Below are positions 2,065 through 21,108 of a DNA stretch of 64,000 bases, piece after piece. This DNA comes from Minisyncoccota bacterium (GTDB taxonomy: Bacteria > Patescibacteriota > Minisyncoccia > Phycocordibacterales > UBA1006), in NCBI GenBank assembly GCA_021209525.1, contig JAJOIF010000001.1, forward strand, positions 10,708 through 74,707, written 5' to 3'. Below the pieces are notes generated by a model that did no database searches, was not told the origin of the DNA, and worked only from the letters and a program-made list of their open reading frames with translations. The translations under genes were made by a program, and so were the position numbers. Numbering within the stretch: the first letter of the stretch is position 1; each line of letters opens with the position of its first letter.

Positions 2065-4086
2065 TCAAGCGTCTGCTCGTTTTTGAGGAAAACGAATAGT
2101 AAAAGTCGTGCCAACATTCATTTCGCTGGCGACGGTTATCGTCCCATTGTGTTTTTTGATAGTATTTATGGCAATATAGAGACCTAATCCCGTTCCTTGT
2201 CCATGCTTGCTCGCGCGTTCTGATCGATAGAGTTTTTCAAAGATATTGTCTTGATCTGCCGGACTAATACCAATACCAGTATCGCTGATGCGTATACGAA
2301 TATCATCGCCATATGTGTCTAATGAGATTCGAATAGTGTTTTCTTGGTGGGGTTTTCCGTATTTGAGTGCATTATTTATGACATTAGCAATCGCTTCTTC
2401 TATTTCTTGAGGAGATCCATGAATACCTAGGCGGGGAGTAATGTCTTGGTGTATATGTGCGCGATATTCCGGTGCAATTTTTTTGAATTCACGAATGAGA
2501 TGGTCCATCATAATACTCAGATTGATTGCTTCATTGCGATGGTTTCGCGCCTGTGTATCTGCTTGTGTTGAGCGCAAGAGACGGTACATAAATGAAGATA
2601 TATTTTCAAGAGCTTGCTCGAAACTATGTATCCATGGCTGAGCACCCATGCGCTGCTTGATAAGCGCCACTTCCGTGCGTGCAATAGTGAGCGGTGTTTG
2701 CAAGTTGTGCGCAATATCAGTCATCACTTTGTTTTGTTGTTTATGTACAGATCGCACATAGGATCTGCGGTCGGTATGATATTTTTCTATACGACCCTCA
2801 AGGTGTTTGTTTTCTTGGGTAAGGGCATATTCGCGCATGAGGATACTCAAGTAATGCGCCGTAAAAGCAAAGTGGCGTAATTCAGCTTCGGTGTACAATC
2901 TGCGACCCTCTTTTGGTCCAATGAGTATATAGGTGATTTGTTCACCGTGCTCGCTATTGTAGAGCGGGTACATGTATGTATGTAGATGTTGTGTAAGATC
3001 GCGCTCTTCGACGATGCGAATAAATGATGCCTCAGTTTCTTGTTCAAGTAAATTGAGGATACGCGCTGTGATTTCTTGGGGATGTGCATGCTCTCGTCGC
3101 ATACTATCTACTTCTTCAAAAATATATGACAAAGAAAAATTACCTTGATTCAAGAAAGGAGAGAGACGCTTGCGCCACAAGCTTTCTGTATATCCAACAA
3201 TGAGTATACTTACGAGTATGAGTGTGCTCAGATGTATGATTTCATGAGTATTGCGCAATGTCTCGGGCGCAATATATACGAGTAGCGTATATATCAAAAT
3301 ACCTCCAGCGCTTCCATAGGATACAAAGCTTGCAATATACATACCTGCGCGCCTTTTTGTTTCTGCGATTTCGATAATATGATTACGGAGTATAAAATAC
3401 ACAATACCCACAACAAGAACACCTGATATGACTGGAATACTGATCCAAAAATAAGCAAGCGATGTGTGCATAAATGCATAGGTGAGTATGCCATGCATTA
3501 CTGTGTATGTAATCATAAAGAAGGTAAAAAAAGTTAGTCTTCGTTGCTTGATATGTTCTTTGTTGTTTTTGTAGATGAGTATCTTGTGTATAAAAAAATA
3601 ACATCCACCACCAGTACCAACTACAAAAAGTATGCTATGCACCAAAATTGTTTGAAGCAGGGTAAGGATGTTTTGAGTATGTAAGATTAGGGTAAGAATG
3701 CTTGCACATGTGTACAGTATGAGGAATATTTGAGTAGACATGCTATCTCTGTATGATTTTTCAAATGCCGCTGCTACATAGATACATGCAATGAGCATGC
3801 TCGCAGTACCTACATACATATACGTACCCCCAAGGCCGCTCTTGCCAAAGATTTGATATTCAAGTACCCCCATAAGGAATATAATATTTCCTAAAAAGAG
3901 CAAAGACAGGCTCTGGTTTTTTGCATTGCGTATACGATGCGCCCACAAAGAAGCGCTCAGTACCATAGAGGCAATGATCATTACCCAAAATATGCTATGG
4001 ATAATAATGATATTGTGCATATGTATAGTATACATTATTAAAAATAAAGAAAAAATAAAAATATTTTGATCAAAAAAGCCTCTCAC
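2065..4086 (-). CDS. Membrane sensor histidine kinase
   Basis: About 10 N-terminal TM helices, an H-box region (HNLQTPLT) and a C-terminal HATPase_c (GTGLGLYIAINTIKKHNGTITVASEMNVGTTFTIRFP). The true start may be an internal Met. Confidence 0.8.
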   Translation of the reverse strand: MRGFFDQNIFIFSLFLIMYTIHMHNIIIIHSIFWVMIIASMVLSASLWAHRIRNAKNQSLSLLFLGNIIFLMGVLEYQIFGKSGLGGTYMYVGTASMLIACIYVAAAFEKSYRDSMSTQIFLILYTCASILTLILHTQNILTLLQTILVHSILFVVGTGGGCYFFIHKILIYKNNKEHIKQRRLTFFTFFMITYTVMHGILTYAFMHTSLAYFWISIPVISGVLVVGIVYFILRNHIIEIAETKRRAGMYIASFVSYGSAGGILIYTLLVYIAPETLRNTHEIIHLSTLILVSILIVGYTESLWRKRLSPFLNQGNFSLSYIFEEVDSMRREHAHPQEITARILNLLEQETEASFIRIVEERDLTQHLHTYMYPLYNSEHGEQITYILIGPKEGRRLYTEAELRHFAFTAHYLSILMREYALTQENKHLEGRIEKYHTDRRSYVRSVHKQQNKVMTDIAHNLQTPLTIARTEVALIKQRMGAQPWIHSFEQALENISSFMYRLLRSTQADTQARNHRNEAINLSIMMDHLIREFKKIAPEYRAHIHQDITPRLGIHGSPQEIEEAIANVINNALKYGKPHQENTIRISLDTYGDDIRIRISDTGIGISPADQDNIFEKLYRSERASKHGQGTGLGLYIAINTIKKHNGTITVASEMNVGTTFTIRFPQKRADA

Positions 4087-7945: not shown

Positions 7946-8692
7946 ATGGAAGATATTCCAACACTTATGGATGCTGTAGGATTGCTCGGTCAATTGTCGT
8001 ATTGGGGTATTTTTGGACTGTCTCTTTTGGCGAATATCTTGATTCCTGTACCCGAAGAAGTATTCTTGCTCGCTCTTGGATATATTTCAGGAGGCGATGC
8101 ACCTGCAGTGAATCCATACCTGACGACCTTGATTGTGATTCCAGGACTTTTGATCAGCGACCTATTTCTCTATAGTCTTGCCCGTTCAGGGAACAAGTAT
8201 ATTGCGATTCTTGAAAAGAAACTGCAGAACTTTAAATTTACGCGCGATCGTGAATTTGTAGAAAAACATATCATCAAGATTATCGTCATCTCACGATTCA
8301 TTGTGCAATTTCGTTTTATGGGTCCTGTTCTTGCGGGGACGACCAATATTTCACGCGCCCGTTTTTTGGCGTGGGATGCATTCGCGCTCTTTATTTATGT
8401 GCCGATGATGATTGGTATTGGGAATTATTTCCATGCGCGTATATCTCAAGTAATTCAAGGTATTGCTTTGGTCAAGAATTACATTCTTATTGCTGTGAGT
8501 GTGATGATTTTTGTGTGGCTGGCACGAAAGATTCGCGCACTTTTCTTTGCGCGCTTTATTTTTGCATTGTCACAACCGCGCGGATATGTAGACACTATGA
8601 TTCCTGGACTCAAAAAACGAGTATATTCTGAATGGCAAGAAGTATGTCCTCCAGACCAAGATCAAGAGCTGTCTACAGACGAGATAAGGTAG
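7946..8692 (+). CDS. DedA/SNARE-associated family membrane protein
   Basis: Multi-TM protein with a DedA-like VPEEVFLLALGY motif. Confidence 0.55.
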   Translation: MEDIPTLMDAVGLLGQLSYWGIFGLSLLANILIPVPEEVFLLALGYISGGDAPAVNPYLTTLIVIPGLLISDLFLYSLARSGNKYIAILEKKLQNFKFTRDREFVEKHIIKIIVISRFIVQFRFMGPVLAGTTNISRARFLAWDAFALFIYVPMMIGIGNYFHARISQVIQGIALVKNYILIAVSVMIFVWLARKIRALFFARFIFALSQPRGYVDTMIPGLKKRVYSEWQEVCPPDQDQELSTDEIR

Positions 8693-8731
8693 ACCCTTGT
8701 TTTTATAAAAAATAGCTATTATATATACATC

Positions 8732-8806
8732 GATCCCGTAGTTTAATGGATAGAACATCAGCTTGCGGAGCTGACGATGCAAGTTCGATTCTTGCCGGGA
8801 TCACCA
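8732..8806 (+). tRNA. tRNA-Arg (anticodon GCG by hand folding), CCA encoded
   Basis: Cloverleaf GATCCCG/CGGGATC acceptor stem, TTCGATT T-loop and TTGCGGA anticodon loop. The anticodon assignment is less certain than the tRNA call itself. Confidence 0.7.
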
Positions 8807-8846
8807 AAGAGAGAGCTAGTTCGAGCACTCGAGAAGGGTCGAATAG

Positions 8847-8886
8847 CAACTAAAAAGCAGGTTAGTAATAACTTGCTTTTTAGTTG
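8847..8886. terminator. Strong hairpin immediately 3' of tRNA-Arg
   Basis: CAACTAAAAAGCAG / CTTGCTTTTTAGTTG forms a 13-bp stem. It lies at the left edge of the AT-rich island. Confidence 0.5.
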
Positions 8887-8906
8887 TAGTTTAATACAAC
8901 GATCTG

Positions 8907-8915
8907 TGCTATAAT
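8907..8915 (+). promoter_or_regulatory. Extended -10 element (TGCTATAAT) driving the HTH-hsdM operon, probably producing a leaderless transcript
   Basis: TGnTATAAT ends 6 nt before the GTG start codon at 8922. Confidence 0.4.
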
Positions 8916-8921
8916 ATATCT

Positions 8922-9128
8922 GTGAAAGACGAATCAAAAAAACTGGGTGAAAATCTCAGAAAAATCAGAACAAAAAAAGACATTACTCAAACAGGTCTTG
9001 CAGAGGCGTTGGGGGTTGATAAGTCTTTTATAAGTAATATAGAAAATGGAAAAACAAATCCAACTCTTTCAACCATTACTAGTATAGCCAAAGCTCTTGG
9101 TGTGTCATCTAATGAATTACTAAAATAA
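8922..9128 (+). CDS. XRE-family HTH transcriptional regulator (possible controller protein of the R-M operon)
   Basis: 68 aa containing TQTGLAEALGVDKSFISNIENGKTNPTLSTITSIAKALGV, a classic Cro/C1 HTH. Confidence 0.75.
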   Translation: MKDESKKLGENLRKIRTKKDITQTGLAEALGVDKSFISNIENGKTNPTLSTITSIAKALGVSSNELLK

Positions 9129-9132
9129 CTTT

Positions 9133-10716
9133 ATGAGTAAAGATAAAACAAATTTAAATACAACCAAAGAACAAGAGCGATCTGAGCTTCACCGTGCCAT
9201 TTGGCAAATTGCCAATGATCTTCGTGGCAGTGTTGACGGTTGGGATTTTAAACAATATGTTTTAGGAATACTTTTTTATAGATTTATCAGTGAAAACCTT
9301 ACAAATTACATCAACATAGACGAAAGACGATCTGGTAAAAAAGATTTTGATTACGCAACTCTATCAGATAAAGAGGCAGAATTTGGTCGTGCTGATACGG
9401 TAAAAGAAAAAGGTTTCTATATATTACCAAGTGAGCTTTTTGTAAATGTTCGTAAAAATGCCAGAAATGATGCAAACCTAAACGAAACATTATCATCTGT
9501 TTTTAATAATATTGAAAATTCTGCAAAAGGTTTTGACAGTGAAGATGATCTAAAGGGATTGTTTGATGACTTGGATGTGAACTCAAATAAGCTTGGTGGA
9601 TCGGTAGAAAAAAGAAATCAAAAACTTGTAAAGCTTCTTGAAGCAATTGGAGATCTTCGTCTTGGTGATTATGGAGACAATACTATCGATGCATTCGGTG
9701 ATGCGTATGAATTTCTAATGACCATGTATGCTTCAAATGCTGGTAAATCTGGAGGCGAATTTTTTACTCCTCAAGAAGTGAGTGAACTTTTGGCAGAAAT
9801 CACAACTGTTGGTAAAAAAGAAGTAAATAAAGTTTATGACCCATGTTGTGGTTCTGGTTCGCTTCTTCTTAAATTTGCAAAAGTACTTGGTAAAGAAAAC
9901 GTACGACAAGGTTTTTATGGTCAAGAAATAAACCTAACTACATACAATCTTTGTCGTATTAACATGTTCTTGCACGATATTAATTACAATAACTTTGATA
10001 TTGCTCACGGTGACACCCTTACAGACCCGAAGCATTGGGACGATGAACCATTTGACGCCATAGTTTCTAATCCTCCGTATTCAATCAAGTGGGATGGTGA
10101 CGCTAATCCTATTATGATTAATGATCCTCGTTTTTCTCCTGCTGGAGTTTTGGCTCCAAAAAGTAAAGCTGATTTGGCATTTACTATGCATATGCTTTCG
10201 TGGCTTTCTACCAGTGGAACGGCGGCGATTGTTGAATTCCCTGGAGTTCTTTATCGTGGCGGTGCTGAAGCAAAAATCCGTAAATATTTAATTGATAATA
10301 ACTATGTTGATGCAGTGATACAGCTCCCGCCCGATCTTTTCTTTGGTACTACAATTGCTACTTGTGTTGTTATCCTAAAGAAAAGCAAAAAAGATAATAA
10401 AACTTTGTTTATAGACGCTTCTGCTGAATTTGTGAGAGGTGGGAATAAAAACAAATTAAGTGGAGAAAATCGAAAGAAAATCCTTAATGCTTTTATTGAA
10501 AGAAAAGACATCGAACATTTTGCAAAAATCATAGACAACAAAGCTATCGCAGAAAATGATTACAATCTAGCAGTTTCTAGTTATGTGGAGCAGAAAGATA
10601 CGAGAGAGGTGGTGGATATAAAAGAGCTGAATAAAGAAATTGAGAGAATTGTAAAAAGACAAAGTGAGTTAAGGTCAGCAATTGATGAGATTGTTAATGA
10701 AATTGAAAATAAATAA
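9133..10716 (+). CDS. hsdM: Type I restriction-modification system DNA methyltransferase subunit HsdM
   Basis: 527 aa with the N-terminal HsdM_N region, the SAM motif DPCCGSGSLL and the N6-adenine motif IV VSNPPYS. Confidence 0.9.
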   Translation: MSKDKTNLNTTKEQERSELHRAIWQIANDLRGSVDGWDFKQYVLGILFYRFISENLTNYINIDERRSGKKDFDYATLSDKEAEFGRADTVKEKGFYILPSELFVNVRKNARNDANLNETLSSVFNNIENSAKGFDSEDDLKGLFDDLDVNSNKLGGSVEKRNQKLVKLLEAIGDLRLGDYGDNTIDAFGDAYEFLMTMYASNAGKSGGEFFTPQEVSELLAEITTVGKKEVNKVYDPCCGSGSLLLKFAKVLGKENVRQGFYGQEINLTTYNLCRINMFLHDINYNNFDIAHGDTLTDPKHWDDEPFDAIVSNPPYSIKWDGDANPIMINDPRFSPAGVLAPKSKADLAFTMHMLSWLSTSGTAAIVEFPGVLYRGGAEAKIRKYLIDNNYVDAVIQLPPDLFFGTTIATCVVILKKSKKDNKTLFIDASAEFVRGGNKNKLSGENRKKILNAFIERKDIEHFAKIIDNKAIAENDYNLAVSSYVEQKDTREVVDIKELNKEIERIVKRQSELRSAIDEIVNEIENK

Positions 10717-10717
10717 T

Positions 10718-11326
10718 ATGAAAAAAGGAATTATATATATAATGACAACTGCCGTTTCTGGTCTAATAAAAATCGGACAATCTGGAATAAATAATTTTCA
10801 AGAGAGAATGAGATTTCTTGAAGCCAATGGTTATTATAATGTTGTAGGATTAAAAAGATTTTTTGCAATTGAACTTGATGATTATGTAGATAAAGAAACT
10901 TTACTTCACGATATTTTTGAAAAACACAGAGTCGGTGAAAGTGAATTATTTGCTCTTGATCAAGAATTAGTCCGCCAACTACTCCTTTCGTTTGAAGGAA
11001 AAATCATTTACCCTGAAAATATTAACCAGGCGAAAGAATTTGATGAAGTTACAGAGATTAGAAAACAAGGAAAATTATTTAGTTTTTATAAAAAAGGATT
11101 AAAGAATGGAGATGAGATTCTCTTTATAAAAGACAAAAATATCAGTGCGAAAATTTGTGGAGAAAGAGAAGTAGAATATCAAGGTCAGATTTGGAAATTG
11201 TCACCGTTAGCATATAGGATCTTTGAACAACGTGGTGAGCTTAATACTAGTGGAGCTTATCAGGGTGCCAACTATTTTGAATACAATGGTAAAAAATTAA
11301 AAGATATTCCCGATAAAGTATTATGA
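10718..11326 (+). CDS. T5orf172-domain (GIY-YIG superfamily-like) protein embedded between hsdM and hsdS
   Basis: GIIYIMTT...GLIKIGQS...ERMRFLE...FAIELDD...LHDIFEKHRVGESELF follows the T5orf172 pattern. The start is 1 nt after the hsdM stop and the stop overlaps the hsdS start. Confidence 0.55.
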   Translation: MKKGIIYIMTTAVSGLIKIGQSGINNFQERMRFLEANGYYNVVGLKRFFAIELDDYVDKETLLHDIFEKHRVGESELFALDQELVRQLLLSFEGKIIYPENINQAKEFDEVTEIRKQGKLFSFYKKGLKNGDEILFIKDKNISAKICGEREVEYQGQIWKLSPLAYRIFEQRGELNTSGAYQGANYFEYNGKKLKDIPDKVL

Positions 11327-12528
11327 AAAAAAACCAATCCAAAATTGAAAAACTAATTTCAGAACTATGCCCTAATGGTGTGGAGTTTAAAATGCTTGGA
11401 GAACTAGAAGATGACAGTTTGATTAAACTTGGACGTGGAAATGTAATTTCAAAAAATGATATTTCTAATACTCCTGGTGATTTTCCTGTTTATTCCTCAT
11501 CAGCAAACGGAGAGGGAGAATTTGGAAGATATGGCAAGTTTATGTTTGATGACGAAAGAATAACATGGTCAATTGATGGTGGTGGTAGATTTTTCTATAG
11601 GTTCCCACACAAATATTCTGTAACAAATGTATCTGGGTGGTTAAAAGTAAATGATAATAATGTAATAAATACGCGTTATCTATATTTCGTTTTATCAAAT
11701 GCTTGGCTAACAAAAGTTTTTGATTATACAAAAAAAGCTCATCCTTCAGTAATTAGAGAGGAGTACAAAATCCCCATCCCACCCCTTGCAATACAAGAAG
11801 AAATTGTAAAAATTCTTAATAGTTTTACAGAGCTAGAAGCAGAGCTAGAAGCAGAGCTAGAAGCAAGAAAGAAGCAATATGAACATTATCGTGCACAACT
11901 CTTAACATTCCCAGAGGGGGGGGTACAATGGGTTAGGCTCAGTGATATTGGCACTATGATAAGAGGAAGTGGATTACAAAAAAAAGATTTTACAGAAACC
12001 GGAGTCGGATGCATTCATTATGGTCAAATTTATACATACTACGGGACTTTTGCAGATAAAACAAAATCATTTGTGTCTCCAGAATTGGCAAAGAAATTAA
12101 AGAAAGCTCAAAATGGTGACGTATTAATTGCTGGTGTCAGCGAAAATATTGAAGATGTATGCAAACCTTTGGGTTGGCTAGGTGGTGAAATTTGTATAAG
12201 TGGCGACATGTTTGCATTTCGTCATAATCAAAATACTAAATTTTTAACATACTTATTACAGACTCCGAATTTTCAAAAGTATAAAGAGAGATTTGCTCAC
12301 GGGACTAAAGTAATCCGAGTAAAAGTGGATAAAATTTTGGACTACAAAATTCCTGTGCCGTCACTTCAAGAGCAGGAACGCATCGTTTCAATCCTCGATA
12401 AATTTGATGCACTTGTGAATGATATTTCAATCGGTTTACCTGCCGAACTTAAGGCACGCAGGTCGCAATATGAGTATTATCGGGCAAAATTACTAACTTT
12501 TAAACCTGTAGAGCGTATGGCGATATAA
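11323..12528 (+). CDS. hsdS: Type I restriction-modification specificity subunit HsdS
   Basis: Two target recognition domains separated by a central conserved region (ELEAELEAELEARKKQYEHYRAQLLTF), plus the C-terminal conserved repeat (ELKARRSQYEYYRAKLLTF). Confidence 0.85.
   Translation: MKKNQSKIEKLISELCPNGVEFKMLGELEDDSLIKLGRGNVISKNDISNTPGDFPVYSSSANGEGEFGRYGKFMFDDERITWSIDGGGRFFYRFPHKYSVTNVSGWLKVNDNNVINTRYLYFVLSNAWLTKVFDYTKKAHPSVIREEYKIPIPPLAIQEEIVKILNSFTELEAELEAELEARKKQYEHYRAQLLTFPEGGVQWVRLSDIGTMIRGSGLQKKDFTETGVGCIHYGQIYTYYGTFADKTKSFVSPELAKKLKKAQNGDVLIAGVSENIEDVCKPLGWLGGEICISGDMFAFRHNQNTKFLTYLLQTPNFQKYKERFAHGTKVIRVKVDKILDYKIPVPSLQEQERIVSILDKFDALVNDISIGLPAELKARRSQYEYYRAKLLTFKPVERMAI
11830..11865 (+). 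repeat. Perfect 12-bp x3 tandem repeat (GAGCTAGAAGCA) inside hsdS encoding (ELEA)x3
   Basis: Read directly from the sequence. It is in frame within the hsdS central conserved spacer region. Confidence 0.9.
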
Positions 12529-12603
12529 ATACGCTCTACAGGGAAGTTAGTTTACATTGGTCTTGCTAATATAAACAAAATAGTATAAAATGTTTACATT
12601 GAT

Positions 12604-13782
12604 ATGAATAATATAAACCAATCAAAAATAGGACGATATATACAGCAAAAAGAAGGATATAAATCCTTTACGCCTTTTGAATTTCCACCAAAGGATGGTT
12701 TTGTTATTAGTACTAAACTTTACAAAAAACACGAGGAAGCTATTAGACTCGTTGGCAAATTAGATGGTATTACGCGCTTACTTCCAGATAAGGATTATTT
12801 TACTTTTATGTTCGTTGTAAAAGATGCAACATATTCAAGTCAAATTGAAGGGACAAAAGCAACCATGCAAGATGCAGTAGCCGCGCCGATAATTGAAGAA
12901 AAAAATCGCAAGGCTAGTGATGTGGATGATATTGAACATTATATCAAGGCAGCCAATTATGGGATTGAGAGAATCAAAGAATTTCCAATTTCACTTCGTT
13001 TTATTCGTGAATTGCATGAAAAACTCATGACTGACGCACGTTCTACTCATCATGCATATCCGGGACAATTTAGAACTTCTCAAAACTGGATCGGTGGTAA
13101 GACTCCTGCTGATGCTTCTTTTGTTCCACCAGCGCCAGATGATATGAAAAAATCTCTTGATGATCTGGAAAAATTCATTCACAAAAACGATGATTATCCC
13201 TCTTTGATTAAGGCGGGACTTTTGCATGCACAATTTGAAACTATTCACCCGTTTACTGATGGTAATGGACGCACTGGGCGTATACTTATCGCAATGTATA
13301 TACACTATGCAGGACTTTTGGAAGAGCCGGTGTTGTATCTTTCTAGTTATTTCAAAAAGTATCAAAAACTCTACTATCAAAAATTGCAAGGGTATCATGA
13401 TGATGAATCCGATATTGACGGTTGGCTCCTGTTTTTCCTTGAAGGAATAATTGAGATAGCAAACTCTAGTATTGAAACATGTACAAAGATCACAGAACTT
13501 CGCGATCGGGATTTTGCAAAGATGCAAAAGCTTGGTAAAAAGTCCGCCGAGTCAACACTTGAAATTGTTCGCAAGTTATATAGCCAGCCAATTGTAGGGG
13601 TAGCAGAAATAATGAAATGGACAGGATTTACTGCTCCTGGTGCATACAAGGTAATTGAAAGACTCAGAGATTTAAAAATTCTTGAGCCTCTTGGTGATGC
13701 AGATTATGATCAAAAATATGTCTATGCCGATTATTATGAATTATTTGATGAGGTGTTTAAAGAAGGTCGCAAAAAGAAATAA
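12604..13782 (+). CDS. Fic/DOC family protein (putative AMPylase-type effector) between hsdS and hsdR
   Basis: Canonical Fic motif HPFTDGNGRTGR within IHPFTDGNGRTGRILIAMYI, a Fic_N-like N-terminus and a C-terminal winged-helix-like tail. Confidence 0.85.
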   Translation: MNNINQSKIGRYIQQKEGYKSFTPFEFPPKDGFVISTKLYKKHEEAIRLVGKLDGITRLLPDKDYFTFMFVVKDATYSSQIEGTKATMQDAVAAPIIEEKNRKASDVDDIEHYIKAANYGIERIKEFPISLRFIRELHEKLMTDARSTHHAYPGQFRTSQNWIGGKTPADASFVPPAPDDMKKSLDDLEKFIHKNDDYPSLIKAGLLHAQFETIHPFTDGNGRTGRILIAMYIHYAGLLEEPVLYLSSYFKKYQKLYYQKLQGYHDDESDIDGWLLFFLEGIIEIANSSIETCTKITELRDRDFAKMQKLGKKSAESTLEIVRKLYSQPIVGVAEIMKWTGFTAPGAYKVIERLRDLKILEPLGDADYDQKYVYADYYELFDEVFKEGRKKK

Positions 13783-13784
13783 TT

Positions 13785-16700
13785 ATGACTAAAACCAACA
13801 AATACAATTTAGTTGCAGAAAATACACAAAGCACGGTTGTCGCCGAGTATGTTTCTGATGTCAAAAGAGTTTCGCAATATCAGAGCGAAGATGCTTTAGA
13901 AAAAGCTTTTATTCAGCAACTAGAATCTCAGGCATATGAATATTTAAATATTACTTCTGAAAATGATCTTATTCTTAATCTACGCAAACAACTAGAAAAA
14001 TTAAATAGTTATACTTTTTCTGATACAGAATGGGAAAGATTTTTTACAAGCGAGCTAGCAAATCCAAATCAAAGTATTGAAGAAAAAACCGCTACTATCC
14101 AAGAAGATAGCACCAAAATATTAAACAAAGATGACGGTACTTTTAAAAATATTGATTTAATAGACAAGAAAAATATTCATAACAATAGTCTGCAAGTTAT
14201 CAATCAATACACAACAGAAGACGGACAAAGATCTAATCGTTATGATGTGACGGTATTGGTAAATGGATTGCCACTTATTCATATTGAATTAAAACGCCGT
14301 GGAGTTGCTATTCAAGAAGCATTTAATCAGATAAATAGATATCAAAGAGAGAGTTTTTGGGCTTCAAGTGGTCTTTTTGAGTATGTGCAATTGTTTGTTA
14401 TCTCTAACGGCACACATACGAAATATTACAGTAATACAACCAGATCGCAGCACATTAAAGAAGCTCAAGAGGGTTCTAAAAATAAAGGCAAGAAAACAAG
14501 CAATAGCTTTGAATTTACGAGCTGGTGGGCAGATGCTACTAATCGCCCTATTACTGATCTAATGGATTTTGCAAAAACATTTTTTGCAAAACATGCGATT
14601 TTAAATATACTGACGAAGTATTGTGTATTTACGACTGATCGTCTATTGCTCGTGATGCGACCGTATCAAATTGTTGCAACTGAAAGAATTTTAAATCGCA
14701 TCGAAGTAAGTACAAATTATAAAAAGCTTGGCACTACTGAAGCAGGTGGCTATATTTGGCATACCACAGGATCTGGAAAGACTCTAACGAGTTTTAAAAC
14801 TGCACAATTGGCAAGTAAATTGTCATATGTCGATAAAGTGTTGTTTGTAGTTGATCGTAAGGATTTGGATTATCAGACAATGAAAGAGTATGACAAGTTT
14901 GAAAAAGGTGCGGCAAACAGTAATACCAGCACTTCAGTTTTAAAGAAACAGCTTGAAGACTCAAATTCTCGAATAATTATAACCACTATCCAGAAGCTTG
15001 ATAGATTTATTGCGAAAAACTCTGGGCATACTATTTTTGATGGTCATATCGTAATTATTTTTGATGAATGCCACCGATCACAATTTGGTGAAATGCATGC
15101 AGGAATTGTTAAGGCATTTAAAAATTATCATTTGTTTGGATTTACTGGAACTCCGATATTTTCTAAAAATGCTTCAGCTGGTGGTAGACCCGATTTTAAA
15201 ACCACAGAGCAGGCTTTTGGTGAGAAATTGCACACTTATACAATAGTTGATGCTATTTCTGACAAAAATGTTTTGCCGTTTAAGGTTGATTATGTTTCTA
15301 CGGTTCGTGAAGCGGAAAACATAGAAGATGCGAAAGTAAAAGATATTGATCGTGAGGCAGTTTTATCAGCACCCGAGCGTTTAGAAAATATTGTTCGCTA
15401 TATTCGTGAACACTTTGATCAAAAAACCAAACGAAATAGTTTTTATAAAATCCAAGACAGAAGGCTGGCAGGATTTAATTCTATATTTGCAGTTTCTTCC
15501 ATTGATGTAGCTAAAAAATACTATCTTGAATTTAAAAAACAGTTAGCGGATGAACCAAGTGATAAAAAGTTAAAGGTTGCCACAATATTTAGTTTTGGGG
15601 TAAATGATGAGGATGCAGATGGGATGATTGATGAGAATTCCGAAGATACCAGTGGTCTTGATGTAAGCTCTAGAGATTTTCTGGAAAGTGCAATTAAAGA
15701 CTACAACAAAATGTTTGGAACCTCTTATGATACGTCGTCTGATAAATTTCAAAATTACTATAAAGATGTAAGTGAGAAAGTGAAGAAAAGAGAAATTGAT
15801 ATTTTGATTGTGGTTAATATGTTTTTGACTGGGTTTGATGCAACTACACTTAACACGCTTTGGGTAGATAAAAATCTTCGTTTACATGGATTATTGCAAG
15901 CATATTCAAGAACGAATCGTATTTTAAATAGTGTTAAAACTTTTGGAAATATTGTTTGTTTTAGAAATTTAGAAAAAGCTACCAATGAAGCAATCGCACT
16001 CTTTGGAGACAAAGAAGCTGGTGGAATTGTATTACTTAAAGCATATGAGGATTATTACAATGGGTATAAAGATGGCGATAAAGAAATACGAGGATACAAG
16101 AGCCTTGTAGATGAATTGCTTGAAAAATTCCCCGTTGGAGAAAGAATTGTTGGAGAACAAAATCAAAAAGACTTTATAAAGTTATACGGAGCGATTTTGA
16201 GAGTGAAAAATATTTTGACTACTTTTGATGAATTTACTGGTAATGAAATATTATCTCCTCGTGATGTGCAGGATTATCACAGTATGTATATCGATCTATA
16301 CAATGAATTCCGCAAAACTGATGATTCTGAAAAAGAAAATATCAATGATGATATTGTCTTTGAAATGGAGCTTATTAAGCAAGTCGAGATTAATATTGAT
16401 TATGTACTAGGTCTTATTAAGAAATACCATGAGGATCATGTTTTGAACAAAGAGCTTCTCGTGGATATTAATAAAGCGATTGATTCGAGTGTGGAATTGC
16501 GTAATAAAAAAGATTTAATCAATCAGTTTATTACTTCTCTTGATGTTCATTCTATTGTTGATGAAGATTGGCAAAAATTTGTAGAAGAGAAAAAAGTCCA
16601 AGAATTAGAGCAAATTATTGAAACTGAAAATCTTGATCCTGAAGCTACATATAAATTTATACAAAATGCTTTCAGGGACGGAAATGTGCCAACAACAGGA

Positions 16701-16853
16701 ACGGCGATTAGTAAGGTTTTACCGCCAGTTTCTAGGTTTTCTCCTACTGGTGAAAGAAGTCAAAAAAGAGAAAGTGTATTGAATAAATTAACTAAATTTT
16801 TTGAAAGATTTTTTGATATTTCTGGAGGTAAATTTACATCTAATGAAAATTAA
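13785..16853 (+). CDS. hsdR: Type I restriction enzyme endonuclease/translocase subunit HsdR
   Basis: 1022 aa with an N-terminal nuclease region, SF2 helicase motifs (GSGKT Walker A and the DECH box IIFDECHRS) and a C-terminal HsdR domain. Confidence 0.9.
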   Translation: MTKTNKYNLVAENTQSTVVAEYVSDVKRVSQYQSEDALEKAFIQQLESQAYEYLNITSENDLILNLRKQLEKLNSYTFSDTEWERFFTSELANPNQSIEEKTATIQEDSTKILNKDDGTFKNIDLIDKKNIHNNSLQVINQYTTEDGQRSNRYDVTVLVNGLPLIHIELKRRGVAIQEAFNQINRYQRESFWASSGLFEYVQLFVISNGTHTKYYSNTTRSQHIKEAQEGSKNKGKKTSNSFEFTSWWADATNRPITDLMDFAKTFFAKHAILNILTKYCVFTTDRLLLVMRPYQIVATERILNRIEVSTNYKKLGTTEAGGYIWHTTGSGKTLTSFKTAQLASKLSYVDKVLFVVDRKDLDYQTMKEYDKFEKGAANSNTSTSVLKKQLEDSNSRIIITTIQKLDRFIAKNSGHTIFDGHIVIIFDECHRSQFGEMHAGIVKAFKNYHLFGFTGTPIFSKNASAGGRPDFKTTEQAFGEKLHTYTIVDAISDKNVLPFKVDYVSTVREAENIEDAKVKDIDREAVLSAPERLENIVRYIREHFDQKTKRNSFYKIQDRRLAGFNSIFAVSSIDVAKKYYLEFKKQLADEPSDKKLKVATIFSFGVNDEDADGMIDENSEDTSGLDVSSRDFLESAIKDYNKMFGTSYDTSSDKFQNYYKDVSEKVKKREIDILIVVNMFLTGFDATTLNTLWVDKNLRLHGLLQAYSRTNRILNSVKTFGNIVCFRNLEKATNEAIALFGDKEAGGIVLLKAYEDYYNGYKDGDKEIRGYKSLVDELLEKFPVGERIVGEQNQKDFIKLYGAILRVKNILTTFDEFTGNEILSPRDVQDYHSMYIDLYNEFRKTDDSEKENINDDIVFEMELIKQVEINIDYVLGLIKKYHEDHVLNKELLVDINKAIDSSVELRNKKDLINQFITSLDVHSIVDEDWQKFVEEKKVQELEQIIETENLDPEATYKFIQNAFRDGNVPTTGTAISKVLPPVSRFSPTGERSQKRESVLNKLTKFFERFFDISGGKFTSNEN

Positions 16854-16861
16854 AAAATTAT

Positions 16862-18328
16862 ATGAATACTGTTTGTATATTAAAAAATTTTCTAGAGTAC
16901 GAGCCATTACCTGAATTAATGCAAGGTGCAGGAATAGCAATTATTACACTGTTAATATCATTTGCTATTGGTATTTTGATACATCATTTAGGAGATAAAG
17001 AACGCAAGGGTGGTTTTCTAGATATTCATGTAGCGTTAGATTATGTTTGGCGTTTTAAACAATCCTTATTTCTAATAGTAATAGTCGTTGTATCACCATT
17101 TTTATTTGCATTTGAAAGCTTAAATATAAAAGCTTTGGTTTTCATAGTTTGGTCTATTTCTATTACTTTATTAATTTATATTAATATTCGATTATATTAC
17201 TGGGTTAAAGGAGATAAAGATGATTTTAGAAAAAAATATCTTTCAAATTTTCCAAAATCACCTAGAGATAAAATTGTTTCTTGGGGAGATTTTTGGAGTA
17301 CCGATATTAATAAGGGTAAAAGATTTACTGAGCCAGATTTTTTCTCAATTTTCTCTAAAGAAATTGATGCATTGTTAATCTCAAATAATAAAGAAGATTG
17401 GGAAACAGTGTTAAAGTTATTAGATGATTTTGTAGATAAAATTGAACTTAGAAATAAAACTTTTCTTGTAGTACTTGATGAATTCTTTCCGAAAATTCTT
17501 GAATGGCATTACTTTCTATGGGAGAAACAATTTACTCAGTATTCAATCGAATTAGGAAAAGAAAATCCTAAAATTGATACATATTTATTTCAAATAGATC
17601 AGCTTATAGATAAAATAATTAAATTTATTACCAATAGTGCGCTAACTACAGGTAATGCCTTTTCATATTTTGATAGACTAAAAAATCATATTGAAAAATA
17701 TGAAGACAAAAATATAGTAGGAGCTAAATTGACATATGAATATATACAACAAATTCCTATTTATGAAGATTGTTTAAATTTGACTTCAAAATCCCCAGAA
17801 GCTTATGATATCTGGAATCATTATTTCCCAGAATCATGGAAGATAACGATTAGTAATCTTGAGAAAAATAAAATATCATGGATTTGGTATGATAGATTTT
17901 TAAATTGGTCTCAATCTAGGATTTGGAATGAAAAAGAAGAATGGGATAAAGATTTAGATGAGGTCGCAAAATCACTTTTCCCAGAGGTTGATCCTATAAC
18001 GTGGGCAAAAATTTATACTTTCGTAATTAGACCGTTTTCAAACGACAGAATGAAATCAATTATAGAAAGTAAGGTAAATTTTGGTTATGTGGGACGCGTA
18101 TATTCTGGTTGGGGCGATGATATGGAAACTAGTTTTGCAAAAAAACAGCAAGAAGAACTTGAAAATACAATTAAGCTAGCTAAATATTTATTCGGTAAAG
18201 TTTTTACAAAGGAAAATATCGACAATTGGATAAAAGAACTTGAAAAATTAGAGTATCTTAAAGATTCAGATGAAAATAGAAAAAAGGAATACTGGAAAGC
18301 CTTACTGGGTAAACTAAAAAATAATTAA
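16862..18328 (+). CDS. Hypothetical membrane-anchored protein (3 N-terminal TM helices plus a ~380 aa cytoplasmic helical domain) immediately downstream of hsdR
   Basis: TM segments are predicted from hydrophobic stretches. No domain was recognised. It lies on the same strand, 9 nt after the hsdR stop. Confidence 0.5.
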   Translation: MNTVCILKNFLEYEPLPELMQGAGIAIITLLISFAIGILIHHLGDKERKGGFLDIHVALDYVWRFKQSLFLIVIVVVSPFLFAFESLNIKALVFIVWSISITLLIYINIRLYYWVKGDKDDFRKKYLSNFPKSPRDKIVSWGDFWSTDINKGKRFTEPDFFSIFSKEIDALLISNNKEDWETVLKLLDDFVDKIELRNKTFLVVLDEFFPKILEWHYFLWEKQFTQYSIELGKENPKIDTYLFQIDQLIDKIIKFITNSALTTGNAFSYFDRLKNHIEKYEDKNIVGAKLTYEYIQQIPIYEDCLNLTSKSPEAYDIWNHYFPESWKITISNLEKNKISWIWYDRFLNWSQSRIWNEKEEWDKDLDEVAKSLFPEVDPITWAKIYTFVIRPFSNDRMKSIIESKVNFGYVGRVYSGWGDDMETSFAKKQQEELENTIKLAKYLFGKVFTKENIDNWIKELEKLEYLKDSDENRKKEYWKALLGKLKNN

Positions 18329-18334
18329 TATAAT

Positions 18335-18622
18335 TTACCCCTTAATCTTAACTCTACTATTTATCAAGGATAGTTCACTACTAATACACTCTAGCACTGA
18401 TCTTTGCTCTAACGCTGAACCCTCTTTCAATACAAATTTAGCATAGTCTTTCAGGTCTATCGTTTCAATTTTTTCAGTTTTCTTTTTACCTAAAAACATC
18501 GCTTGTAATTTTTTAAATTTCTGAATTTCACTATTTAATTTAGAGGTAAGCTGTACTTTATTTAAACTTAAGGTATCAATCATTTTTAGAAGTGCTTCTA
18601 TAAGGTCTGGAAGGTACCCCAA
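18335..18622 (-). pseudogene. C-terminal fragment of a large serine recombinase (coiled-coil tail only)
   Basis: DLKDYAKFVLKEGSALEQRSVLECISSELSLINSRVKI aligns with the tail of the 31783-32262 recombinase fragment ([36 protein letters not shown]). The catalytic domain is missing. Confidence 0.5.
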
Positions 18623-18638
18623 AATTCAGACACCTTTT

Positions 18639-19693
18639 CTACGTACGTTCATCATATATCAGCACTTCTTTCTCTGCAAATTGTAGGGGCGCCATACCCA
18701 ACACAGAGTGTATCCTTCTTCGATTGTAATAGTTGATGGTCTTGTAGATTTCAGCTACAAGCTCACCAAGTGTTTCAAATCGATTAGGATCTCCAAGGTC
18801 TAGCTTGAACCCTTTGTAAAAGGATTCTTGATAGCCATTCTCCCAGGGACATCCAGGCCTACTCATGGATTGTTGTATACCTAGTTTCTGAACAAGAGCA
18901 GTGTAGTCTTTTGAGGTATACTCACTTCATTGGTCTGAGTGAATGATTCTCGGTGGTGCACGATGGAGTACAGCATTAAGTAATGCATTCATCACAAGCT
19001 GTGTAGCATGAGTGGTCAGAATAGCTACCCCTACAATCTCTCTGGTATATACATCAATGACCCTAGTAGGATAGATCCATTTCCCTTGAAACTTGAGGTA
19101 GGTGAAGTCAGATGCATAGATATCTCCCCTCCCACGAGGTGTCTCAAACAACAAGAGATTTGAGAAGATACTGTCTTTTGTCTTGTATACAAAGGGTTTC
19201 TTGGTGTATCTACGATATGGCTTGATACCAAAGATCTTCATGACTCTAAGTATTCGTTTCTTGTTGATTTTCAAGTGGAGTGCAAGACGCTTGTGGCCAT
19301 ATCCTGGATGTTCACGTAACACTTCTTCAATCATTTGCTTCGTCCTCCAGTCTTTAAGAGGTTGCTTGTGTTGATAGTACTGATGGGTTCGTTTGATACC
19401 TATGCGAGTACCATCTATACTTAGGCTCTTGAGGGCCCCTTTTTAGCCTCCATAGACATACGAATGGTAAGTTCTCCAATCAATCTCTTTAACTCTTCAT
19501 TCTCCTTCTTGAGCTTATTGTGAACTAATACACTCACTGAACCCTTGGCTTTGTTCCCAAGCCATGAGTAGATCGTAACAGTACTCACTCCAATATTCTG
19601 TGCTGCTTGGGCAACGCTGATACCTTGATGTTTGATACGGTTAATAGTTTCTTCTTTGATTTCTTTTGAGATTTTGAATTTCTTTTTGGACAT
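18639..19693 (-). mobile_element. Degenerate IS3-family insertion sequence. orfA (19421-19693) is intact, but orfB is N-terminally truncated and split by an in-frame TGA (18927-19334 plus 18639-18866)
   Basis: OrfA has an HTH plus a leucine zipper (IS3/IS911 type). The OrfB pieces carry DDE-integrase motifs (IIHSDQ, GCPWENGYQESF, YNxxRxH). The orfA/orfB overlap is lost. TGA is a genuine stop codon here because prfB is present. Confidence 0.7.
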
Positions 19694-19815
19694 ATATGTA
19701 TTCTATATTAATTAATAATTACATAGAATAGTTGTCTGAAGAAAGGGGTACCTTTCTCACCTAATAAAAACACCCCGCATGATGTATACGGGGTGTGGTT
19801 ATTAAGCAAATAACC

Positions 19816-20109
19816 CTATTTTTTCTTGCAATGACCGCTCAGTGTATCTTCTTCTGTTTCATATCCAAATGAGAAAAATGTGATCATGAAAAGAAGAATG
19901 ACATACATGAATCCCATAAGCATGGTCTGGGGATAGGTGTAAATACTTTCCATATGGTCAGTGAATTCATACCAAGCGAGTCCCATGAAGACAGAAATAC
20001 CAATGGCGCATATAATATATACGCATATGCGGATACTTCTGTTTTTATCAGCATACAAAAGAGGTGCGAGCATGCACCCGAATACTATTGTCAAATAAAT
20101 GAGTCCCAT
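19816..20109 (-). CDS. Hypothetical small membrane protein (3 TM)
   Basis: Call based on hydrophobicity alone. Confidence 0.35.
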   Translation of the reverse strand: MGLIYLTIVFGCMLAPLLYADKNRSIRICVYIICAIGISVFMGLAWYEFTDHMESIYTYPQTMLMGFMYVILLFMITFFSFGYETEEDTLSGHCKKK

Positions 20110-20132
20110 GGTTTATTTTTTTGGTGAGTAAT

Positions 20133-20609
20133 TTATTCCCAATCAAGCATTTCTAGATTTTCAAAAAGAAAATGCAATGAATGCTTGCCAACAAGAGACA
20201 TCACAGTTTTTTTATGTAGTGTCTCAGTGTCGTAGTTTTGTAATGCGTCAAATGCGTCCTGATTATCAAAACGCACCATTATTGCAGTGCAATCCTCGGT
20301 GCATCCCATTTTGATGTAGTCAGATTCGATGGTCATTTGTTTGGTTGCCCATTTTTCAGATGCGGGCATGCTTAACAATTTCATAATCTTGTCAAAAAAG
20401 CTATCCGGCTCATTTGCTTCAGAAATTTTTTCTCTGTAGATGAATGAAAAAGAAGTTATCTTTTTTTTGATAATCTCAGAAAAGGGTAGGGCTACCCCTT
20501 GTGAGTTTGTAAAGTACACCTCATCTTCTATGATAGTACGGTGCGTGTTACCTAAGCGGTTCAACGTTATATTCATAATGGTAAAGTTTTGTTTGTGATA
20601 TAGTAACAT
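20133..20609 (-). CDS. Hypothetical protein
   Basis: 158-aa ORF with no recognisable motif. Confidence 0.3.
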   Translation of the reverse strand: MLLYHKQNFTIMNITLNRLGNTHRTIIEDEVYFTNSQGVALPFSEIIKKKITSFSFIYREKISEANEPDSFFDKIMKLLSMPASEKWATKQMTIESDYIKMGCTEDCTAIMVRFDNQDAFDALQNYDTETLHKKTVMSLVGKHSLHFLFENLEMLDWE

Positions 20610-20705
20610 ATATAAATTATCTCGTCAATTTTTGTAACATTGCGGAGCTGAGAAACATGTTGCAGGTATACAAAAACCGCCACCATGTGACGGTTTCTGT
20701 GTATG

Positions 20706-21108
20706 TGGAGATGGGCGGAGTCGAACCGCCGTCCATGAACATCCCTGAGCAACATCTACGAGTGTAGATGTATTTTTTATATCTATGCAAATAGATAATC
20801 TCAACACCGCCACCTTTAAAATACTCGAAACAGTAGCAGTGTCTATCTTGATGATTTAAAAGATATGTTCAAGAGGCGCATATCTTCGAGTGTAGGTATA
20901 TGACATCACGATCCTCTCTCTACACACAAGAGGCGCGACGACATCGCATTATATTATGCGAATGCTGGCGTAAATCCAAATGCTGAAGCATAAGGGCTTA
21001 CTACTTTCTTTGCGTTTGCACTTAAAGAAGTGTGGTCGATTTACGAGTATACCACAACTCGACCCGCATTACTCAGGGGGATTGTACATGTCGAAGCCAG
21101 ACATCCCC
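20706..21108 (-). ncRNA. ssrA: tmRNA (SsrA)
   Basis: The 5' end GGGGATGTCTGGCTTCGACATG matches the tmRNA consensus GGGG.UG.UUCUGG.UUCGAC. The 3' end GGTTCGACTCCGCCCATCTCC-A forms a tRNA-like T-arm and acceptor with the 5' end. The internal reading frame GCA AAC GCA AAG ... GCA TTC GCA TAA gives the tag ANAKKVVSPYASAFGFTPAFA. smpB is adjacent. Confidence 0.75.

Follow-up and report, generated by a model that had tools for sequence, protein, structure and literature searches.

The tetra-amino-acid repeats TAEL, LEAT, SEAL and TSEL are characteristic of the specificity subunits (HsdS) of type IC restriction–modification enzymes (PMC10030836). EcoR124I carries two 12-bp TAEL units and recognizes GAA N6 RTCG, whereas EcoR124II carries three and recognizes GAA N7 RTCG; this change of unit number is attributed to unequal crossing-over within the repeat, and the behaviour of engineered hybrids agrees with prediction (PMC3874165). 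In EcoDXXI hybrids the spacer likewise changes as predicted, and three TAEL units have been reported for EcoprrI (PMC3874165). Strains of Neisseria gonorrhoeae have zero to three LEAT units in the hsdS gene of NgoAV, and in PacBio methylomes the motif is GACN6TGC with one unit, GACN7TGC with two and GCAN8TGC when the subunit is truncated by a downstream poly-G frameshift (PMC6789123). The active truncated NgoAV subunit, HsdS1, is 208 amino acids (aa) long (PMC9577141). Here we analyse a 64-kb stretch of DNA (contig JAJOIF010000001.1), referred to as the window, from a metagenome-assembled genome (MAG) of Candidatus Pacebacteria, which belong to the candidate phyla radiation (CPR, or Patescibacteria). 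Its hsdS gene contains three in-frame copies of a 12-bp unit encoding ELEA. With a probability of about 80%, we read this tract as the spacer-setting element of a type IC HsdS, a tandem repeat of four amino acids akin to those of EcoR124I, EcoDXXI and NgoAV that can be changed by the in-frame gain or loss of units.

The gene, the repeat and the helices that surround it are located as follows.

11323-12528, + strand: hsdS, a specificity subunit of 401 aa with two target recognition domains and two conserved helical regions, assigned by Pfam Methylase_S and EcoR124 HsdS (7bst_A).
11830-11865, + strand: (GAGCTAGAAGCA)x3, encoding (ELEA)x3, the tetra-amino-acid tandem repeat, found by direct reading, by Tandem Repeats Finder and as a period-12 run.
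11785-11901, + strand: central conserved helix (residues 155-193), the first strand of the antiparallel coiled coil separating the recognition domains, placed by DSSP of the model and the ungapped EcoR124 alignment.
12364-12492, + strand: C-terminal conserved helices (residues 348-390), the partner strand of the coiled coil, placed from helices in the model.

The earlier note on this DNA had reported an in-frame, threefold 12-bp repeat in hsdS, and the sequence bears this out. Positions 11830-11865 hold three perfect, mismatch-free copies of GAGCTAGAAGCA, which lie in a perfect period-12 run of 38 nucleotides (nt; 11828-11865); Tandem Repeats Finder extends the array to 11828-11876 (period 12, 4.2 copies, 92% matches), with a degenerate end up to 11876. 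The repeat is in frame within the 401-aa open reading frame (ORF) and encodes ELEAELEAELEA, residues 170-181, followed by RKKQYEHYR. By chance, a perfect 36-nt tract of period 12 is expected about 5e-10 times per 64 kb. In the genomic island around the gene, 13% of Leu residues are encoded by CTA and 25% of Glu residues by GAG; at this codon usage and given the protein, identical codons in all three ELEA units have a probability of 0.0016, which argues that the DNA repeat stems from duplication and not merely from a repetitive protein. The 12-bp triple repeat in hsdS is real.

The surrounding protein is comparable in architecture to the specificity subunit of EcoR124. Pfam Methylase_S matches the window HsdS in two stretches, and the EcoR124 HsdS chain 7bst_A matches it with E=3.4e-39 and 28% identity overall. 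An AlphaFold model (pLDDT 89.4) superposes best on EcoR124I HsdS, again 7bst_A, with TM scores of 0.76/0.79. In this model, DSSP assigns a single continuous helix to residues 155-193, which contains the ELEA repeat, and the partner helices span residues 348-366 and 371-390. A 207-position PADLOC profile, 'Specificity_I', matches residues 6-196.

HMMER aligns FTELEAELEAELEARKKQY of the window protein to FTALTAELTAELNMRKKQY of 7bst_A without a gap, which places the repeat in the TAEL region and confirms the earlier note's assignment of it to the conserved central region. Because 7bst_A is a 404-aa chain with two TAEL units, the gap-free alignment means that three ELEA units correspond to the helix length of EcoR124I, the N6 enzyme. 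The counts differ, three against two, because the repeat pattern of the window also accommodates the residues next to the two TAEL units in EcoR124I. The analogy with EcoR124I and EcoR124II drawn in the earlier note thus holds, with one correction: the locus is of type IC and the repeat is equivalent, but three ELEA units equal the two-TAEL length of EcoR124I and not that of EcoR124II. In the window allele, 13 residues separate F168 from R182, as against 17 residues between the corresponding F and R of the C-terminal conserved region; the two conserved regions share 57% identity, with a sole gap, of four residues, exactly at the repeat.

These features suggest how the repeat would act. The three ELEA units would account for roughly three turns of the long central helix, which together with the C-terminal conserved helices would make an antiparallel coiled coil that keeps the recognition domains apart. 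The number of units would then set the length of the helix and, through it, the count of unspecified base pairs between the half-sites recognized by the methyltransferase and the endonuclease. Because the units are identical in DNA, replication slippage or unequal crossing-over could add or remove exactly 12 bp while keeping the frame.

Homologous hsdS genes provide evidence that unit number changes. We examined 120 protein homologues, 80 loci from species-representative genomes and 22 metagenome loci retrieved with a DNA pattern that extends across the repeat, and measured helix length as the distance separating the F in ILxxF from the R in RKKQY. In 84 gene copies this distance is exclusively 9, 13 or 17 residues, that is, two, three or four units (about 7, 42 and 35 copies, respectively, after six mis-parsed rows were corrected by eye), and helix length is therefore quantized in steps of one unit. 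Among the 22 metagenome loci, 2, 11 and 9 genes have two, three and four units, so that three units are the commonest state in both samples. Intact, full-length hsdS genes were found with each of the three numbers. Units that are identical in amino acids within one gene are also identical in DNA in 168 of 234 pairs (72%), whereas the same amino-acid unit compared between genes is identical in DNA in just 12-21%; across the family there are ten DNA variants for ELEA and eleven for ELTA. The units thus evolve in concert within a gene, as is expected where units have been gained and lost repeatedly.

Closely related alleles point the same way. The nearest relative of the window HsdS (P0001, from locus L001; a second member of its protein cluster differs in the start codon alone) is 79% identical overall, with recognition domains 73% and 87% identical, and has two copies of GAGCTAGAAGCA where the window has three. 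The alleles of Actinobacillus seminis (L023, three units) and Histophilus somni (L024, four units) are nearly identical and one unit apart: both recognition domains are 100% identical, and the only indels in a 226-column alignment around the repeat are one 12-bp unit and a GGG in a poly-G tract downstream. Aggregatibacter kilianii (L019, four units) and Haemophilus seminalis (L063, three units) likewise differ in unit number, and also by a 1-nt indel at the G tract. About 10 of the 22 listed pairs with both recognition domains at least 60% identical, a set from which the comparison of the window with its own copy (L002) was excluded, differ in the number of units. In the aligned stretches near the repeat, indels between related alleles are confined to the 12-bp repeat and to positions at or right beside the poly-G tract. 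Unit gain and loss has thus clearly recurred in the family, in which solely two-, three- and four-unit forms were found.

Two further architectures were seen among the homologues. Many proteins of about 600-640 aa (P0002, P0011, P0013, P0020, P0046, P0054 and others) are three-domain HsdS subunits with three conserved helical regions, in which the tetrapeptide repeat is confined to the first; extended three-domain HsdS proteins are mentioned in PMC7383803. Half-size HsdS ORFs of 196-232 aa occur in L009, L034 (second gene), L063 and L085, and end 24-27 residues past the start of RKKQY.

An alternative is that the repeat is functionally neutral or inflexible, a mere low-complexity stretch of coiled coil in which a change of copy number either leaves specificity intact or kills the enzyme. 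The prevalence of three units in the family would fit this view, as would a review stating that the response of the coiled coil to a one-sided change is not clear (PMC3874165). However, intact genes with two, three and four units exist, some of them in pairs with identical or near-identical recognition domains, and the spacers of EcoR124I/II, EcoDXXI hybrids and NgoAV change exactly as unit number predicts (PMC3874165, PMC6789123). We consider a neutral repeat very unlikely.

We then compared the locus between assemblies of the same strain. GCA_021208345.1, GCA_021208725.1, GCA_021209085.1 and several Logan assemblies represent the strain of the window, with 0-2 substitutions per contig (window 1946-29817 against L115-L120). 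Differences of 1 nt, in the form of indels that fall for the most part in short A/T runs, are nevertheless numerous and fragment genes, for example ftsH in L115, which points to error-prone reads behind these assemblies. Two independent public assemblies from Logan, SRR12390700 and SRR12390694, are of the same strain and contain an identical three-unit tract. These were also the only records returned by exact-protein look-ups of HsdS, HsdM, HsdR and the products of two genes inserted in the operon, a 194-aa protein and a Fic protein. Look-ups with the flanks (SmpB and a 248-aa gene at 7946-8692) returned three NCBI MAGs and Logan contigs, all of which end before the hsdS repeat; the break falls at an insertion sequence (IS) element, inside hsdM or ahead of it. 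When JGI metagenomes were scanned for the allele of the window, with gaps of variable length allowed at the repeat and the G tract, there was no match, and a looser pattern gave 22 related genes, none near-identical to the window hsdS. The window HsdS is absent from a clustered protein collection, and the species-representative genomes contain no hsdS more than 66% identical to it. The host was assigned from LigA: the window's copy matches a Candidatus Pacebacteria protein at NCBI with 100% identity, and the next relative has 61%.

The many indels between assemblies of the strain raise the question of whether the tract is an assembly or sequencing artefact, in which a tandem repeat was collapsed or expanded. 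Most of these indels, however, alter a short A/T run by 1 nt or are of a single base and none is of 12 nt, whereas the 36-nt tract is shorter than any read, keeps the frame and gives a helix length typical of the family. Its identity in two further assemblies makes an artefact unlikely, and taking all of this together we give that explanation next to no weight.

Several points weigh against our reading of the tract as a changeable, spacer-setting repeat. Unit number does not vary at the locus itself, the window, SRR12390700 and SRR12390694 all having three units, although these covering assemblies come from one study and probably sample one population and so are weak evidence either way. Three 12-mer copies provide only 24 bp of misalignable homology, a weak substrate for slippage. 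The type I operon, whose activity we infer, is interrupted by two inserted genes. Finally, how a coiled coil accommodates a one-sided change of four residues is not clear, EcoR124 included (PMC3874165).

The first two of these points also bear on a stronger claim, namely that the repeat is a contingency locus or phasevarion (a phase-variable regulon) switching at high frequency, with mixed two-, three- and four-unit alleles and a mixed methylome in one population. The units are identical in DNA, unit number differs even between alleles with 100% identical recognition domains, and N. gonorrhoeae strains with zero to three LEAT units have matching methylomes (PMC6789123), all of which would be expected of such a locus. 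Set against this are the three units in all three assemblies and the low copy number, three, of a long unit; loci known for high rates have longer tracts (PMC7383803), and the differences observed are between species or strains, consistent with rare events. Cited rates are about 1e-6 for three tetranucleotide units and about 1e-3 for G9 (PMC7383803), and a repeat this short is therefore unlikely to switch at high frequency. We regard high-frequency phase variation at the repeat as improbable and the window repeat as an evolvable, low-frequency toggle, not as a demonstrated high-frequency phase-variation locus. The earlier note had described unit gain and loss as a switch that re-specifies the methylome and had proposed a search for two- and four-unit alleles. 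Recurrent gain and loss holds for the gene family, and relatives with two units (including L001) and four units exist; none was found in the three covering assemblies of the strain, for which the word 'switch' was probably overstated.

A second tract, overlooked in the earlier note, lies 50 nt downstream of the 12-bp repeat. It is listed here with two A8 tracts of the gene.

11916-11923, + strand: G8 homopolymer (codons GAG GGG GGG GTA, residues E198-V201), a candidate NgoAV-type frameshift switch, from a homopolymer scan.
11326-11333, + strand: A8 tract right after the hsdS start codon, from the same scan.
11978-11985, + strand: A8 tract in the second recognition domain (LQKKDF), also from the scan.

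The G8 tract is the sole G/C run of at least 7 in the 64-kb window, in which about 0.3 runs of at least 8 are expected. In the model it encodes part of a loop (residues 194-201) that joins the central helix to the second recognition domain. The predicted products of G7 and G9 are 211 and 204 aa long and comprise the first recognition domain and the central helix, so that a slip of one nucleotide in either direction would give a half-subunit of about 204-211 aa, as against 208 aa in NgoAV. Such a half-subunit could, as in NgoAV, dimerize and recognize a palindrome. NgoAV shares with the window a tetrapeptide repeat in the central helix followed, in the same order, by poly-G; it differs in that the gene of strain FA1090 is in the truncated state, whereas the window hsdS is full length.

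Tracts of this kind recur in the family. G7-G9 is found at the equivalent junction in 12 of 80 homologous genes, carried by Saccharibacteria and other Patescibacteria, Pasteurellaceae, Spirosoma and Treponema. Tract length differs among relatives (G8 in L024, G5 in L023), and the hsdS of H. seminalis (L063) is in an out-of-frame state at the G tract. In two metagenome genes a (GA)n repeat replaces poly-G at the junction (L085, about 2620-2640; L096, about 3620-3640); the former is truncated 24 residues past the start of RKKQY and the latter is full length. The nearest relative of the window, L001, has a short (GA)3 there. Where Gly-Gly stands at the poly-G junction it is encoded by GGGGGG in every case, although just 8% of Gly residues in the window's island are encoded by GGG, which argues that the tract is conserved and not the dipeptide.

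These observations make a different reading possible, in which G8 is the operative switch, a G7 or G9 half-subunit homodimer methylates a palindrome by the NgoAV mechanism and ELEA number is effectively fixed. Beyond the rarity of the tract, the predicted product sizes and the recurrence, length differences, codon choice and (GA)n replacements described above, its position agrees with a survey of REBASE, in which simple sequence repeats (SSRs) in hsdS were always found between the recognition domains, directly past the TAEL coiled coil (Atack et al. 2020, PMC7383803); the window gene has the same arrangement just past a TAEL-type coiled coil. G8 falls short of the criterion of that survey, which excluded mononucleotide tracts of fewer than 9 and repeat units that are multiples of three, so neither the 12-bp repeat nor the G8 of the window hsdS would have been counted; shorter tracts can also vary (PMC7383803). 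Against a G8 switch, all three covering assemblies read G8, although assemblies of this strain cannot be relied on for homopolymer lengths, and recurrence of the tract could stem from a shared, recombining central cassette instead of selection. We put this reading at somewhat under even odds. It complements rather than excludes the interpretation of the ELEA tract as a spacer-setting repeat, and of the two elements it is more probable that G8, not the 12-bp repeat, is the fast, NgoAV-type switch.

The A8 tracts were considered as well. hsdS holds two of the window's seven A8 tracts, and the one at 11978-11985 reads A9 in the SRR12390694 contig (L107, about 1263-1271), splitting the gene; the same contig has TT in place of TTTT at window 11275-11276, in the 194-aa gene. 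We rejected the change from A8 to A9 as a phase variant, because assemblies of the strain disagree at numerous short A/T runs and show almost no substitutions; both differences in L107 are probably sequencing noise.

The remaining genes of the operon are as follows.

9133-10716, + strand: hsdM, a type I methyltransferase subunit of 527 aa (Pfam N6_Mtase and HsdM_N; NCBIfam hsdM equivalog, E=3.8e-235).
10742-11326, + strand: a 194-aa gene that separates hsdM from hsdS, a candidate defence gene (PADLOC PDC-S57, E=1.3e-48).
12604-13782, + strand: a Fic-domain gene of 392 aa between hsdS and hsdR (Pfam Fic and Fic_N; PADLOC SoFic, E=2e-105).
13785-16853, + strand: hsdR, a restriction and translocase subunit of 1022 aa of the EcoR124 type (Pfam EcoR124_C, T1R_D3-like, SWI2_SNF2 and HSDR_N).

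Among solved structures, EcoR124 is the best match for all three subunits, and for HsdS the only good one. The best match of the window HsdM in the Protein Data Bank (PDB) is EcoR124 HsdM (7bst_D, E=1.6e-187), with the type IA enzyme EcoKI matching only at E=4e-14, and the window HsdR matches Pfam EcoR124_C (E=6e-69) and, over residues 4-831, EcoR124I HsdR (2w00_A, E=2.6e-258). The genes stand in the order hsdM, hsdS, hsdR, all on the + strand, with two inserted genes among them; this is the order of type IC loci. Classically the type IC family is defined by subunit complementation; by all criteria that can be read from sequence, the locus is a member. It shares with EcoR124I and EcoR124II three homologous subunits, a 12-bp, four-residue repeat at an equal place in the central helix, the flanks ILxxFT ... 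RKKQYxxYR and the gene order, and its helix has the EcoR124I length. It differs in its repeat unit, which is ELEA (GAGCTAGAAGCA) and not TAEL, in the two inserted genes and in the G8 past the helix. Its host is a CPR bacterium, whereas EcoR124 is encoded on an enterobacterial plasmid (R124), and no partner allele of the window strain was found. With 28% identity overall, its recognition domains are unrelated in detail to those of EcoR124, and the half-sites are therefore expected to differ.

The inserted genes recall EcoprrI, a type IC locus in which prrC is inserted between hsdS and hsdR. Both loci have an unrelated defence-type gene at this place, but that of the window encodes a SoFic-like Fic-domain protein and not an anticodon nuclease, and PDC-S57 is additionally present between hsdM and hsdS. 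The 194-aa gene has a weak MUG113/T5orf172-like domain (Pfam MUG113, E=1.2e-4), and its stop codon overlaps the hsdS start (ATGA); identical coordinates were called for it in L002. In L001 (Logan SRR27197509; 8479-9999 and 12607-15665), the closest related locus, the gene between hsdM and hsdS is instead a 506-aa reverse transcriptase (RVT_1), two further genes, one encoding a DUF4325 protein, precede hsdR, and gene calling gives hsdR as two ORFs, one of 740 aa and one of 277 aa.

The restriction–modification genes of the window lie on a low-GC stretch at about 8700-21100 (29-37% GC, against about 41-43% around it), which is bounded by a tRNA gene (8732-8803) and a tmRNA gene (20703-21108). 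The same stretch contains fragments of an IS3-family transposase at about 18640-19690 and a 488-aa ORF (16862-18328) with no family match in Pfam, NCBIfam or PADLOC.

The interpretation of the repeat as a spacer-setting element is textbook for the type IC family, of which the window locus is one more member, and the understanding of type I enzymes is unchanged by it. For annotation, repeat copy number indicates the spacer class to expect, here that of EcoR124I length, and the repeat flags a gene whose specificity can shift by a 12-bp indel with the recognition domains unaltered, which is relevant when the methylomes of related strains are compared. The family survey gives the old model quantitative support, in the form of quantized helix lengths, concerted units and indels at the repeat and poly-G. 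It is conceivable, though in our view doubtful, that the GGGGGG-coded junction past the central helix of type IC HsdS has been selected as a hypermutable site common to several phyla; if so, it would include many G7-G8 tracts and 12-bp repeats that SSR surveys have excluded by design. Phase-variable restriction–modification has hardly been discussed for Patescibacteria, and the survey shows that an hsdS architecture resembling that of NgoAV, as predicted from the genes, is common in this group. Equally doubtfully, in our view, the two tracts could make up a contingency locus with two dials in the hsdS of an ultra-small CPR bacterium, in which the number of 12-bp units sets the spacer and G8 selects the full or the half subunit. 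Were this true, several methylation specificities would arise from one operon, which would constitute a phasevarion in Patescibacteria.

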